From the sequence record MN850635.1: a stretch of DNA of 64,000 bases. The stretch is one strand, 5' to 3'. Positions 46,794-56,971 of this stretch are shown here, piece after piece. The position numbers and the translations under genes were made by a program. The notes beneath the pieces were generated by a model. That model was given only the letters and a program-made list of their open reading frames with translations. It did not search any database and was not told the origin of the DNA. The first letter of the stretch is position 1; each line of letters starts with the position of its first letter. The stretch is from Escherichia phage bumzen.

Positions 46794-46818
46794 AGGCTCC
46801 TTCGGGAGCCTTTTTCAT
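46794..46818 (+). terminator. rho-independent terminator with UUCG loop
   Basis: aggctcc-ttcg-ggagcct then ttttc. Confidence 0.7.
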
Positions 46819-46834
46819 TTCAGGAGATTGTTAA

Positions 46835-48335: not shown

Positions 48336-49121
48336 ATGGGTATTGTAAAAATCATCAATGGGGATATCTTCTCCGCATTTGATAAAGGTAAGTTTGATAT
48401 TATTGGTCACGGTTGCAACTGTATGAATTTAATGGGTGCAGGTATCGCTGACAAGATTTCTAAACTTTACCCAAAAGCATATGAGACCGATACAGAAGTT
48501 TATCTGTATGCAGGTGGCATAGGCCACAAACCCTGTGAAAATTTACTAGGGAATTTCTCTGTAGCACGTTTAGAACAAGGCCGTATAGCTAACCTTTACA
48601 CACAACTTCATACTGGTAAAGATGCCCGATACAGTGCTTTAGAGTCATCTTTGAAGAAACTTAACATGTACTGTGAAGTCAATCAGTTGAAGAAAGTCGG
48701 GTTACCTATGATTGGCGCAGGTATCGGTGGACTAGACCCTCAAGCCGTCACAGTTATCATTAATCAGGTGATGAAGAGTGTAGATGTTTATCTGTATGTC
48801 TACGAAGGAGAGATGTACCACAAGTTACGCTCAGGTTGGAATAACTACTGTGAACCAGAATACTTTGCAGGTGTAGTAATGTTCACAGATGATACAGTTA
48901 CCCTCTTCAGACGAAGAAAAGGTAAGATACATCAAAGTAACCCTCCGGTTGAGAAGATGTCTCTAAGTAACGCTCTAGTTACCCACCTGTCAAAGAGCAA
49001 TCACAGAATTGCTGTAACATTTGGTAGTGATGCAGAAGCTTATATCTATGCAAGAACTGATGAGGATATCGAGGCAATCTTCTCTTCACCAGAAGTTACC
49101 TTCTTAGACGCAAAGAACTAA
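48336..49121 (+). CDS. macro-domain-like protein (ADP-ribose binding/hydrolase fold) with C-terminal extension
   Basis: NGDIFSAF...DIIGHGCNCMNLMGAGIA and LPMIGAGIGGLDPQAV resemble macro-domain motifs. Confidence 0.4.
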   Translation: MGIVKIINGDIFSAFDKGKFDIIGHGCNCMNLMGAGIADKISKLYPKAYETDTEVYLYAGGIGHKPCENLLGNFSVARLEQGRIANLYTQLHTGKDARYSALESSLKKLNMYCEVNQLKKVGLPMIGAGIGGLDPQAVTVIINQVMKSVDVYLYVYEGEMYHKLRSGWNNYCEPEYFAGVVMFTDDTVTLFRRRKGKIHQSNPPVEKMSLSNALVTHLSKSNHRIAVTFGSDAEAYIYARTDEDIEAIFSSPEVTFLDAKN

Positions 49122-49189
49122 GAAACTCTGTAGTATATTCACAATAGCCTAAGCCTTTCTTATCTGGTAAATTTTTCAGGTAAGGAGGG

Positions 49190-49375
49190 CTTTTTCATTT
49201 TAGAATTGTGCAGGTAGAGTTCTGTAGAGAAATCTGTAGAGAGAATTTTGAACTCCAAAGGGAAAATTCATTTTCAAACTGTGCAGGTAATCTCCAAAGA
49301 GCTTTTTCATTTTCAAAACGTGCAGACCCCGCTCAGGTCGGGCAAGAAAAATCATTTTAGATTTGTGCAGGTAGG
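49190..49375 (+). repeat. four direct repeats of a ~22 bp motif upstream of the early-gene array
   Basis: cattttagaattgtgcaggta / cattttcaaactgtgcaggta / cattttcaaaacgtgcagacc / cattttagatttgtgcaggta, then C-rich tract 49393-49428. Confidence 0.6.
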
Positions 49376-49571
49376 TTTTTATAGAGAGCCAGACCAACCC
49401 CTCTCCCCCTCTTACTCCCCCTCTCCCCAAAAGTCAAGAGAAAAATTTGTAGCGGATTGAAAAATAATTCTTGATTTGTGTTCTGTTTTGTGGTAGTCGT
49501 GTGCGCCCGTTTCATTACAGTTTTGCCAAAAATATTTTTAAAATTTTTTCTTGACTCTTTGAACGTGGTTA

Positions 49572-49600
49572 TCTAGTATTTGCATCAACGGGGAGGGAAT
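49572..49600 (+). promoter_or_regulatory. strong sigma70-like promoter at head of small-gene array
   Basis: TTGACT - 17 bp - TAGTAT with AT-rich UP-like region upstream; then hairpin leader and RBS. Confidence 0.65.
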
Positions 49601-49642
49601 GACCTTCCCCACTAAATAAAGTCCTAAACTGGAGATTCAAAA

Positions 49643-50023
49643 ATGGCATATCGCGCACCTAAATTCATCAATAAAGACAACTTTCGCAACGCACTGGAGA
49701 AGTCACTTGATGAAAATTTTAAAGGTAACATTATCGTTGTTCACGCATTCAATTTTAAGTATGATGTAAACGGGAATAGAATCAACCATTACACGGCAAC
49801 CATGTTAGATGGTACACTATCAAGTGAAAAAGCCGTACTGAATGCACTAGCAGGACGCGGAAAAGTATTAGTAAGATGCGATAAGCGACGTTATCAGGGT
49901 GGCGCATATGGTTATGATGATGCTGTTTATCATCTTGAAAATATGGGCTATAAAGTAGAAAAAGCTGGGGTATCGCAAATCATCGGGAGCGATGGTTATG
50001 TAACAATCTTCAAAATTAACTGA
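49643..50023 (+). CDS. hypothetical early protein
   Basis: 126 aa; own promoter cassette and conserved leader/RBS. Confidence 0.5.
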   Translation: MAYRAPKFINKDNFRNALEKSLDENFKGNIIVVHAFNFKYDVNGNRINHYTATMLDGTLSSEKAVLNALAGRGKVLVRCDKRRYQGGAYGYDDAVYHLENMGYKVEKAGVSQIIGSDGYVTIFKIN

Positions 50024-51722: not shown

Positions 51723-51747
51723 TTTTGGTTTTTAAAACAAGTAAATT
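51719..51747 (+). promoter_or_regulatory. family-B promoter cassette
   Basis: TTGATT - 17 bp - TAAATT, then leader hairpin gggaggtaataacctcccc and conserved RBS. Confidence 0.5.
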
Positions 51748-51809
51748 ACTAATCAACGGGAGGTAATAACCTCCCCACTAAGTAAAGTCCTTAAACTAGG
51801 AGATTCAAA

Positions 51810-52082
51810 ATGTACACTACTAACAACGGTCGCACCTTAAACGTAACCATTCGTCACTATGTGAACGGTGTAATGCACTTCGAAGATTTACAAGCCGAAC
51901 AACATATCTTAGATTGGCAACTTGCAGGACTACAAAAAACTGCTACAGGATACGGGAAAAAGATTCCAACCAGTTGGAAAGTATACTACGAAGGCCGTTT
52001 GCGCAGAATTTATCAGGATGTGCAAAGCAATAGCGCATCGAGTTACATCATAGTAAAAGGTAAAAAGCTGCATTTAGTGTAA
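51810..52082 (+). CDS. hypothetical early protein
   Basis: 90 aa. Confidence 0.5.
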   Translation: MYTTNNGRTLNVTIRHYVNGVMHFEDLQAEQHILDWQLAGLQKTATGYGKKIPTSWKVYYEGRLRRIYQDVQSNSASSYIIVKGKKLHLV

Positions 52083-52581: not shown

Positions 52582-52610
52582 TTGACACCGGTTTTTAGAT
52601 AGATTAAATT
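52582..52610 (+). promoter_or_regulatory. family-B promoter cassette
   Basis: TTGACA - 17 bp - TAAATT, then leader hairpin ggggagggaatgaccttcccc. Confidence 0.6.
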
Positions 52611-52673
52611 ACACATCAACGGGGAGGGAATGACCTTCCCCACTAAGTAAAGTCCTAAACTGGAGATTCTAAA

Positions 52674-53828: not shown

Positions 53829-53854
53829 ACAAGCCTGATAAAAGTCTGTAAATT
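53826..53854 (+). promoter_or_regulatory. family-B promoter cassette
   Basis: TAGACA - 17 bp - TAAATT, then leader hairpin ggggagggaatgaccttcccc. Confidence 0.5.
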
Positions 53855-53919
53855 GTCAATCAACGGGGAGGGAATGACCTTCCCCACTAAATAAAGTCCT
53901 TAAACTAGGAGATTCTAAA

Positions 53920-54390: not shown

Positions 54391-54419
54391 TTGCAATCAG
54401 CTATCAAAACAAGTAAATT
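54391..54419 (+). promoter_or_regulatory. family-B promoter cassette
   Basis: TTGCAA - 17 bp - TAAATT, then leader hairpin ggggaggcaataacatcccc. Confidence 0.5.
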
Positions 54420-54481
54420 ACTAATCAACGGGGAGGCAATAACATCCCCACTAAATAAAATCCTAAACTGGAGATTCTAAA

Positions 54482-55015: not shown

Positions 55016-55091
55016 GTCAATCAACGGGGAGGGAATGACCTTCCCCGCTAAACAAAACCCTTAATCAACTTCCTAAACTGGAGATTCTAAA

Positions 55092-55340
55092 ATGGCTACT
55101 ATCCGCGCAACTGTTAACGAATTTGGCTTCTACTCTCTGGACGTTAAATTTGACCTTGTAGGTACTGATAACGCCTTTGAAATGGTGAAAGGCCTTATCA
55201 GCCAGACCATCAGTGACTACAACCCCTCTGATGAATTCTGGAAAGAAACAAAAGAGGAAGTTCTTAAAGATGGTTACACTTTTCACTATTGGGGAGAAAA
55301 AATCGTCTCCCTGTACTACAACAAACAAGGTTGCAACTAA
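55092..55340 (+). CDS. hypothetical early protein
   Basis: 82 aa; last gene of array. Confidence 0.5.
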   Translation: MATIRATVNEFGFYSLDVKFDLVGTDNAFEMVKGLISQTISDYNPSDEFWKETKEEVLKDGYTFHYWGEKIVSLYYNKQGCN

Positions 55341-55420: not shown

Positions 55421-56971
55421 TACAATCCCTTTCCCTTTCCTTTCTAGAATCTTATCAGACCTTAAAAAGCAATAACTTTACAGCCTTTTACTAAGTCAAT
55501 TAATTGGCCTTATTAATAAGCCCTTAAACATAAGCCAATAACCCCAGAAAGGGGGCAACCCATTTAAACGCCATATAAAGCCCTATAACGGCCTTTTTAA
55601 CCTAACTTAAGGGATTGCATTACCTCACCCTTAAAAGCCCTTTATAAAGCTTCACAGAGCCTTAAAAGAATCTTATAAGGGTGTAAGCTTTATTATCTCG
55701 TTAGCTATCTTGTGAACTACTAAACAACCCCCTTGATAGTAACTGAAAAGTATGTTATAGGGGCTTTAAAGTTACTTTGAAGTAGCTTAAGAGTTACGTA
55801 AATGCTAGCCCCCTTAACATTTTCTTAACAATTTCTTAACAATCCCTACATAGTTATGCTTGTTAGAGACTTGTTAGCCCCTTGTTAAATCTCTGTTAAG
55901 ACCACGTAAAAGCCTTGTAAGAACCTTTGGCATAGCCTTAAAAGCCCCTGAAAAGCCCTATAAAGAGCTATCCATACAGTTGAGGGGTAAATACTAGGAA
56001 GAGACTTAAAAGGGCTTATAAGGGGCTATAGAGAGCTTTTAAGAGGTATGTTTAGAGATTCACTAAGAGGGAAAGGGAACGATAAGAAAAGAGATAGTGA
56101 CCATGTTAATAGCTTGTTAAAAAGATTAAACACTTGTTAGAGACTTGTTAATTATCTTAACAAAATAACTCTTAACATTTAACTACTTAGCTCTTGTTAG
56201 TCATCTGTTAAGATTCTGTAAAGACTATTCAGCACTTGTTAGAAAACTGTTACATCCTTGTTAGTTCTGTTAAGAATCTGTTAAGACCTTTGAAGAGTTG
56301 TTAAGAAGATGTAAGGACTGTTAAGAGATTGTTAAGGATATTTTAAAATTTTGCAAAGTACTTGTAAGGGAGCTGTTAAGGGCTACCAAGCAGATATACA
56401 TCCTAGACAGATATTTTTCAGTTCCTTCAAAGACCCTAAAAAATGACTTGATAGTCCTATTTTATAAAAATTTTAAAATTCTGAATAATTACCTATACAG
56501 TCTTTTAAAAATACAGGTAGAAACAGGCTTACAAGATACCTTGTTAGTACCGTGTTAGACCTTGTGAGGTAAGGTCTGTAAAGATATTCCTGTTAAGTTT
56601 GTTAAAACAGTCTATATAGAGGCTTAGTATTACCTAGTGAACACCTATAGAGAGTGTCATAGCTAACCTAGAGATTAAGAGGTGTATAGGAGCTTCTAAG
56701 AGGGTGTAGAGGGATGGTTAAGGTGATTGTATAGGTGGTTAAGAGGGCTTGTTAGAAGAGTGTTTAGAAGGCTATTTAGAAGGGCTATACAGAGGGCTAT
56801 TAAGACCACTAGATAGTTACTAAGATACTATATAGTACTATATAACTATATAGAGAGTAAGATTAAGAAGGTTGTTAAGAAGGATAGATATTTTATTCAC
56901 ATATGATGGTGACCCAGAGGTTGGGACAACCGATAAAATTTTATAAAAATTATAAATTTCGTAAATTTTAC
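55421..56971. repeat. 1.55 kb ORF-free region with dense short direct repeats
   Basis: More than 30 same-orientation copies of YTGTTARR (cttgttag, ctgttaag, ttgttaaga) at 55.85-56.9 kb plus gccttaaaagc / gccctataaag motifs at 55.5-56.05 kb; no ORF of 60 aa or more on either strand. Confidence 0.8.

Follow-up and report, generated by a model that had tools for sequence, protein, structure and literature searches.

A conserved single-copy array of bipartite direct repeats, probably bound by a protein, in a non-coding gap of Felix O1-type phages

The genome of Escherichia phage bumzen (record MN850635.1), analysed here as one stretch of 64,000 nucleotides (the window), carries four direct copies of the bipartite motif CATTTT-N6-GTGCAG, which probably form a single-copy array of sites for a sequence-specific DNA-binding protein. 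The 64-kb window is that of a Felixounavirus, a myophage resembling Felix O1 and wV8, and the 1.8 kb around the array are 94-96% identical to many Escherichia and Salmonella Felixounavirus phages. The repeats lie within a non-coding gap of ~520 bp (49122-49642), which has the terminator of a macro-domain gene on its left and the first small early gene on its right. Phages of the Felix O1 type are classic Salmonella typing and biocontrol phages, and to our knowledge neither their replication origin nor their early regulatory circuitry has ever been mapped. A literature search retrieved no description of an origin or of iterons in these phages, and the array is not among the other direct repeats listed in the papers and records on wV8 and Felix O1; the element is of a familiar kind, but the present instance is previously undescribed. 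Being single-copy, present in three genera, about 200 bp long and built on an explicit, mutable motif, the array is a candidate cis element on which origin mapping, DNA pull-downs and phage engineering could concentrate, as well as a site to avoid or exploit for payload insertion.

All four copies are on the plus strand, at 49196-49213, 49269-49286, 49308-49325 and 49353-49370. Their start-to-start distances of 73, 39 and 45 bp bear out a preliminary description of this DNA, made from the letters alone, which had reported four repeats spaced 40-70 bp apart. With at most one mismatch allowed, four occurrences were observed against 0.57 expected, a number reached in none of 100 shuffled sequences, and no further copy was found elsewhere in the window under the same threshold. 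A window scan with a longer 21-nt pattern (up to three mismatches) added just two isolated sites, consistent with chance. In the complete 87.6-kb genome of the close relative UAB_Phi87, four matches with 0-1 mismatch fall at the same locus, accompanied by one isolated one-mismatch site elsewhere. Copies 1, 2 and 4 end in GTGCAGGTA and copy 3 in GTGCAGACC; the copies written out in the preliminary description are real, except that the fourth has AT in place of AA.

The anatomy of the repeat unit was read from an alignment of all units of the three genera. In every unit a G-rich box A (AGGTAAGGAGGGC, ACTCCAAAGRG or AGGTCGGGCAAG) is followed by an A/T pentamer (W5, either TTTTT or AAAAT), the core CATTTY-N6-GTGCAG and a terminal GTA, and the length of the N6 gap is constant throughout the aligned units. 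Unit 1 (49178-49216) comprises box A AGGTAAGGAGGGC (49178-49190), TTTTT and the core CATTTTAGAATTGTGCAGGTA (49196-49216), its left part being at the same time the 3' arm and T-tail of the macro-domain terminator. Unit 2 (49250-49289) is made of box A GAACTCCAAAGGG, AAAATT and the core CATTTTCAAACTGTGCAGGTA (49269-49289), and is directly followed by unit 3 (49290-49328), with box A ATCTCCAAAGAGC, TTTTT and the core CATTTTCAAAACGTGCAGACC (49308-49328). Unit 4 (49335-49375), composed of box A AGGTCGGGCAAG, AAAAAT and the core CATTTTAGATTTGTGCAGGTA (49353-49373), is the closest of the four to the units of Erwinia phages (AGGTCTGGCAAGAAAAATCATTTTCGATTTGTGCATAG).

The preliminary description had proposed a search for conservation in relatives, and the array is indeed kept at the same syntenic position in Felixounavirus, Mooglevirus and Kolesnikvirus, with three to five units, whereas the flanking macro gene has just 56-70% nucleotide identity between these genera. 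In Mooglevirus (Mordin and its IMG/VR relatives) there are four units, spaced by about 75, 41 and 45 bp. The Kolesnikvirus Erwinia phage phiEa21-4 possesses true head-to-tail units of 37-39 nt (spacings 37, 37 and 39), all of whose cores end in GTGCATAG or GTGCATAA rather than GTGCAGGTA, so that the copies have changed in concert. Some Felixounaviruses lack unit 2 through a 37-nt deletion and retain three units (loci L029, L140 and L141). A scan of IMG/VR with a two-unit pattern retrieved Ounavirinae only, plus three unrelated chance or coding matches; an earlier single-unit scan of the same database had been too loose, chance matches predominating. The array pattern was unmatched in E. coli genomes and plasmids, and macro-domain homologues proved too widespread to serve as an anchor for distant relatives.

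In order to see which bases are retained, we used an alignment of 10 sequences from two genera whose macro genes share ~70% nucleotide identity. The proportion of invariant columns is 88% in the cores and 74% in box A plus W5, but falls to 33% in N6, 35% in the inter-unit spacers and 19% in the cassette 3' of unit 4. The difference between cores and spacers (Fisher p = 2e-8) is indicative only, the alignment being anchored on the repeats and the sequences being related. Nevertheless, invariant cores, diverged N6 and spacers and a fixed half-site gap point to selection on specific bases. In Felixounavirus and Mooglevirus alike, the interval running from the 3' arm of the terminator up to the invariant AAAAGTCAA...GTAG block (49178-49452) measures exactly 275 nt, even though it has undergone four indels that compensate one another (-2, +4, +2, -4; orthologues L004, L013, L032, L093 and L102); in the three-unit variants it measures 238 nt. 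This constancy hints that the whole array is under a length constraint.

Three open reading frames span the repeats, at 49200-49430 on the minus strand and at 49248-49460 and 49208-49360 on the plus strand. The first two had been noted in the preliminary description as probably not genes, a judgement with which our data agree. Unit spacings differ between genera by non-multiples of three, and a comparison of the array frames with Pfam and PHROGs yielded just a match of 19 residues to a PHROG that lacks annotation and a Pfam match below threshold; together with the 37-nt unit deletion and the swap of an adjoining cassette (see below), this led us to reject coding across the array. Several public records nevertheless place hypothetical genes over it (EU877232 (wV8) gene 13, JN225449 Phi87_49 and Phi87_50, KT363872 Mordin_126, and small coding sequences of PP810247), and these differ in strand and frame from one phage to another. 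Judging from the sequences, they are very unlikely to be real genes and appear to be spurious calls, so the present analysis corrects the annotation of several GenBank records.

The single-copy status of the array, its asymmetric cores with a fixed gap, the A/T flips, the variable number of units, their concerted change and the footprint together suggest iteron-like binding sites. That the copies changed together between genera speaks for a phage protein evolving alongside them and against a host factor such as DnaA, and the flip of W5 between TTTTT and AAAAT would be tolerable for a protein that reads DNA through the minor groove but drastic for an RNA site. The half-sites CATTTY and GTGCAG are separated by 6 bp, which puts their centres 12 bp, or about one helical turn, apart, with the A/T pentamer and the G-rich box upstream; such a layout would suit a protein with two reading heads that contacts the major groove at two successive places and the minor groove of an A/T stretch. 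The array begins at the terminator of the upstream operon and would face a divergent hub of sigma-70-like promoters, a candidate PL to the left and P2 and P1 to the right. The phage replisome is T7-like, with a Toprim and DnaB-type primase-helicase resembling T7 gp4, and T7-type replisomes use promoter-linked origins. Once bound, the array would act jointly with transcription that starts at the early-type promoters nearby, opening or priming the neighbouring A/T-rich DNA for the replisome, in a manner similar to that proposed for T4 oriE with its iterons and early promoter. What the sequences show directly is the existence of the repeats, their uniqueness in the genome, the way in which they are conserved, their non-coding status and an absence of RNA structure; protein binding and the identity of the binder, as well as PL activity and a role in replication, are inferences.

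While protein binding is probable, the origin-like character of the array is proposed tentatively, and the complete explanation, a binding array with an origin-like mechanism, is preferred with no great confidence. An origin role is favoured over regulation by a small margin, a regulatory or insulating role being nearly as likely. The suggestion of regulator-binding iterons or an origin-like element made in the preliminary description stands as far as a selected cis-element is concerned (single-copy, in three genera, with invariant cores), but the sequence cannot choose between origin and regulator.

Several observations weigh against the preferred explanation. No T7-type replisome is known to require an iteron-binding initiator, and the primase-helicase gave no match to an extra origin-binding domain. 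No DNA-binding or Rep domain (Pfam, PHROGs) was detected in the products of ten neighbouring genes, of the macro-domain gene and of the first early gene, a screen that did not extend to the whole proteome. The spacing is irregular (37-76 bp, or 3.5-7 helical turns) with no common phase. The adjacent DNA is just moderately A/T-rich (49440-49560, ~68% A+T by our own count versus 61% for the window), and there is no change of GC skew at 49 kb. Matches to DnaA boxes and IHF sites in the gap are at chance level, with one observed of each versus 1.5 and 1.1 expected. The candidate PL has a poor -10 element in this phage, with no T at position 6, and scores below the threshold of the promoter scan, which did not call it. 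The iterons of T4 oriE, for their part, have no established link to origin activity (PMC3016281). Our literature search gave no Felixounavirus transcriptomic data, and the gap has no reported result in the Bas63 knockout screen.

Host DnaA or IHF sites were thus rejected for this phage as being at chance level. For DnaA in particular, the gap holds a single 8/9 match to TTWTNCACA, outside the repeats, versus 1.46 expected, and the cores themselves match at 6/9. The Kolesnikvirus cores read on the minus strand (CTATGCACA or TTATGCACG) match the same box at 8/9.

Comparison with known origins gives a mixed picture. Classical iterons are phased at ~22 bp, lie beside or inside the gene for their Rep or O initiator and are often accompanied by DnaA and IHF sites. 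The iteron origins of plasmids and phage lambda (RK2, R6K gamma, P1, ori-lambda) resemble the present array in having three to five direct, asymmetric sites of ~20 bp that are single-copy in the replicon, in adjoining a more A/T-rich stretch and promoters, and in varying in copy number among relatives. The four bipartite cores of 18-21 bp accordingly agree with the hallmark of at least three direct repeats of ~17-22 bp unique in the replicon. Conversely, helically phased spacing is absent, no initiator gene is recognisable among those screened, and DnaA and IHF sites do not exceed chance. The T7 primary origin, with its tandem promoters followed by an A/T-rich region, is comparable in its T7-type primase-helicase and family-A polymerase and in having a non-coding region with promoters and A/T-rich DNA close to the end of the genome that bears the early genes. 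It differs in that its promoters are those of the phage's own RNA polymerase and no iteron array exists, whereas here the promoters are sigma-70-like and the repeat array dominates.

A further parallel is T4 oriE, which consists of a cluster of 12-nt iterons and an early-mode promoter (PMC3016281). T4, too, is a lytic myophage with rII-type genes and a macro-domain (Tk.4-like) gene, and in both phages a cluster of direct repeats occupies a short untranslated region beside early-type promoters of the host RNA polymerase. The repeats are in both cases kept in syntenic regions of relatives and their role is without experimental proof (PMC3016281). Unlike the evenly spaced 12-nt iterons of T4, the units described here have bipartite cores of 18-21 nt at irregular distances of 37-76 bp; moreover, there is no sequence similarity, the replisome is T7-like and no counterpart of repEA or repEB was found.

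The strongest competitor of the origin-like array, which we consider possible though somewhat doubtful, is that the same repeats serve transcriptional control or insulation: a bound protein would block or tune leftward transcription from PL, sparing the upstream operon a collision, or would organise the PL/P2/P1 hub and so time the first early gene. The candidate PL is a sigma-70-like sequence on the minus strand (49409-49437), with a -35 element TTGACT at 49437-49432, a 17-nt spacer and a -10 element TAAGAG at 49414-49409; in the alternative allele of the neighbouring cassette (allele b, below) the -10 position reads TAGCCT. A stronger leftward promoter, TTGACG-18-TATACT, faces the array in Kolesnikvirus, and to judge by these motifs the array may, in each of the three genera, receive transcription from a sigma-70-like promoter directed leftward. 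The array would then occupy about +30 to +210 relative to PL while abutting the operon terminator. In the block AAAAGTCAAGAGAAAAATTTGTAGCGGATTGAAAAATAATTCTTGATT (49429-49476), which contains an inverted repeat (I1), the -35-like elements AGTCAA and TTGATT stand back to back between A/T-rich flanks; it is the most conserved block of the region, 23 of 24 columns (96%) of 49429-49452 being invariant across two genera. This conservation is in favour of a control element, as is the terminator-to-block length of 275 nt (238 nt in three-unit variants), which holds in both genera despite the indels.

To the right, P1 (TTGACT-17-TAGTAT, plus strand, 49551-49579) is preceded by an A/T-rich tract and drives the first small early gene (49643-50023, plus strand), the same module being found in relatives. 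This promoter exists as the preliminary description had given it, but its rank as the strongest early promoter finds no support in the hexamers: P1 scores 9/12 in the promoter scan, versus 10-11 for several of its neighbours. The candidate weak rightward promoter P2 (49471-49499, plus strand; TTGATT, a 17-nt spacer with TGn, and TAGTCG) was not called by the scan. A direct repeat (D9) pairs 49457-49474 with 49537-49554, and P2 resembles a degraded copy of the P1 module. Both PL and P2 are weak by consensus, which counts against control or insulation, and no regulator was found among the screened neighbours. In addition, 200-390 bp separate the repeats from the P1 start downstream of them, more than a classical operator would allow, and the motif is missing from all other early promoters, which excludes a regulation of the whole early array such as the preliminary description had envisaged.

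We also considered whether every unit might itself be a sigma-70 promoter directed leftward. The promoter scan accepts two units of Kolesnikvirus (TTGCCA-17-TAAAAT and TTGCCA-17-GAAAAT), but in Felixounavirus and Mooglevirus units the -35-like box lies 22-25 nt from the -10-like element, and the idea was rejected as a general property. A comparison by eye with the CRP, marbox, sigma-54, sigma-32 and sigma-E consensus sequences revealed no fit.

An action at the level of RNA, in which the motifs would belong to a non-coding RNA transcribed leftward from PL, or to a read-through 3' untranslated region of the macro operon, and be bound by a multimer in the manner of TRAP or CsrA, appears improbable. 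Short motifs recurring at roughly 40-nt intervals, the overlap of unit 1 with the 3' arm of the terminator and the leftward promoter-like element facing the array would all be in keeping with it, and a CUCCAAAGRG mini-hairpin on the plus strand retains U-G pairing. Yet the folding energy shows no excess over shuffled sequences on either strand (z = -0.49 on the plus strand and +0.15 on the minus strand), the contribution of covariation in alifold amounts to -0.35 and -0.79 kcal/mol, and compensatory pairs number 0 on the plus strand and 3, in weak helices, on the minus strand. A search of Rfam returned no match at the gathering score and none close to threshold, and a structured RNA or a known RNA family was consequently rejected. 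The replacement of U5 by A4U in W5 would alter an RNA site drastically, and plus-strand RNA should be rare behind so strong an upstream terminator.

We regard as equally improbable that the array is a functionless relic of tandem duplications of the terminator 3' arm and its tail, kept by common ancestry and gene conversion. Such a history is suggested by unit 1 itself, which is terminator arm plus tail, by the head-to-tail units of 37-39 nt in Kolesnikvirus and by a copy number ranging from 3 to 5. A second intrinsic terminator of the window (46794-46821, AGGCTCCTTCGGGAGCCT) has TTTTTCATTTC after it, a tail that it shares with the left half of the units, which fits an origin of the units from a terminator tail. 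Nevertheless, neutrality sits poorly with an array that persists in three genera whose macro genes are just 56-70% identical, and with cores that stay invariant at a fixed half-site gap while N6 and spacers have diverged.

By analogy with phage T5, the array might instead be a pausing or anchoring site at the inner boundary of a terminal early block of ~7 kb (~8% of the genome), where membrane-associated DnaA or another host protein would hold the entering DNA until early proteins are made, the terminal early module being delivered or expressed first. We give this very little weight. The array is 6.4-7.2 kb from the genome end (terminal repeat at 55808-56387), and the interval contains only small early genes transcribed towards that end; the Kolesnikvirus cores match the DnaA box at 8/9 on the minus strand, and in T5 the injection-stop (iss) region, which has DnaA boxes among its repeats, is situated at 7.9% of the genome (bioRxiv 10.1101/866236). 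The T5 region (LTR repeat region 3) is likewise untranslated, repeat-rich and strongly conserved and lies at the inner edge of a terminal host-takeover block, ~8% from the end. Its DnaA-box-like cores have a parallel in the Kolesnikvirus version only, however, the cores of the present phage not being DnaA boxes. The T5 region spans 1.2 kb, contains palindromes as well as inverted repeats and belongs to a terminal repeat of 10 kb, whereas the present array is limited to ~200 bp of directly repeated units outside a terminal repeat of 0.6 kb. Other points against a pause are the 6/9 match of the cores to the DnaA box with no regional excess of such boxes, and the equal specificity of DnaA in Erwinia and E. 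coli, which makes a concerted change between genera unexpected. No two-step injection has ever been reported in phages of the Felix O1 type, and the DnaA model for T5 is itself a proposal. If the pause were real, two-step DNA delivery would extend to Felix O1-type myophages.

That the region is a physical genome end, i.e. a direct terminal repeat or packaging site responsible for breaks in assemblies, can be given practically no credence. The breaks themselves are real enough: IMG/VR contigs L025 and L063 stop at 49418, L063 running on into Nextera adapter, and the GenBank record of EC106 has its end at 49420, which is its start, and lacks the next few hundred bases. The ends of the KhF1 record (KT184313; L008/L009) overlap by 377 bp across 49179-49549, and Erwinia phage BoyaciRG1 (OR125561; L010/L011) has an exact terminal duplication of 1232 bp over the array, beginning inside the macro gene. 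The KhF1 overlap is only 89.7% identical, though, which suggests a chimeric or mixed assembly. The 581-bp terminal repeat annotated by PhageTerm in Pr103Blw maps to 55808-56387 of the window. Felixounaviruses carry terminal repeats of ~0.6 kb (PMC4837284; PMC8303462), and in UAB_Phi87, which has a 608-bp terminal repeat, SpeI end fragments of 2819 and 4322 bp were mapped experimentally (PMC4837284); these fit a 6568-bp SpeI interval and place the ends at ~55.7-56.3 kb. A genome terminus at the array is thereby refuted for Felixounavirus, the terminal repeat and SpeI ends lying ~6 kb downstream. The stretch 55808-56387, non-coding and low in GC, is the direct terminal repeat of this phage; short repeats of the types CTTGTTAA, CTGTTAAG and CTTAACA fill it densely, and its identity to the Pr103Blw repeat in the alignment is ~83-91%.

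Contigs L025 and L063 derive from the same metagenome (3300045988) and are identical over their last ~1.3 kb, so that the stops at 49418 and 49420 represent two separate data sets, which break within 2 nt of each other inside a C-rich tract. A further IMG/VR contig, L085, turns GC-rich and host-like past window position 49342. The simplest reading of the breaks at the C-rich tract is sequencing dropout at a G-quadruplex-prone sequence, although they may alternatively mark a physical discontinuity.

The C-rich tract, which the preliminary description had correctly placed upstream of the promoter, extends over 49394-49428 and is both the most C-rich (24/35) and the most pyrimidine-rich (32/35) 35-mer of the window; its complement is the sole G-quadruplex motif there (G4-N3-G5-N7-G5-N3-G4, minus strand). 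The tract is held by a variable cassette of ~52 nt (49377-49428), of which the present phage has allele a. An unrelated allele b of equal length (GGTGGGTGCAGGTGGGGATGTCGCCATTTCTCACAAGGCTACCACATCTGAAAAG) occurs in 13 of the 21 Felixounavirus loci of our alignment, and in the phage database 111 records contain allele a at full length (Moogle-like phages included) and 141 contain a match to allele b. With allele b in about 140 of roughly 220 Felixounavirus records, allele a is the minority form in this genus, contrary to the idea that the tract is part of the element. Because the cassette is swapped and Kolesnikvirus has three short C runs only, a G-quadruplex, i-motif or Rho-utilisation role would not belong to the conserved part of the element.

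As for the neighbouring genes, the macro-domain gene ('phosphatase', Tk.4-like; 48336-49121, plus strand; Pfam PF01661, phrog_335) is the last of a long plus-strand operon. Its intrinsic terminator (49151-49192, plus strand) was identified by a terminator scan as a 17-pair stem followed by TTTCATTTT and is also annotated in the wV8 and XTG1 records. On the other side, the gene at 49643 opens a series of small genes with no assigned function, every one with its own promoter cassette. The 5' leader of P1 (49584-49642), a GGGGAGGG...CCTTCCCC hairpin and the ribosome-binding region, recurs ahead of at least five more small early genes (51740-51811, 52605-52673, 53848-53919, 54412-54481 and ~55020-55096), and these sites correspond to the DR_x promoter/leader cassettes annotated in wV8. 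In relatives, 0.4-0.8 kb of extra genes are inserted immediately 3' of P1, and the DR_x cassettes are probably the driving force behind the mosaicism in gene content there.

The base composition of the window has a peculiarity of its own. CCGG and CGCG are strongly depleted, at 0.2x and 0.16x of expectation, and GATC does not occur once in 64 kb versus ~225 sites expected, nor in the 87.6 kb of UAB_Phi87 (JN225449), which amounts to an extreme avoidance of Dam, MboI and DpnII-type sites.

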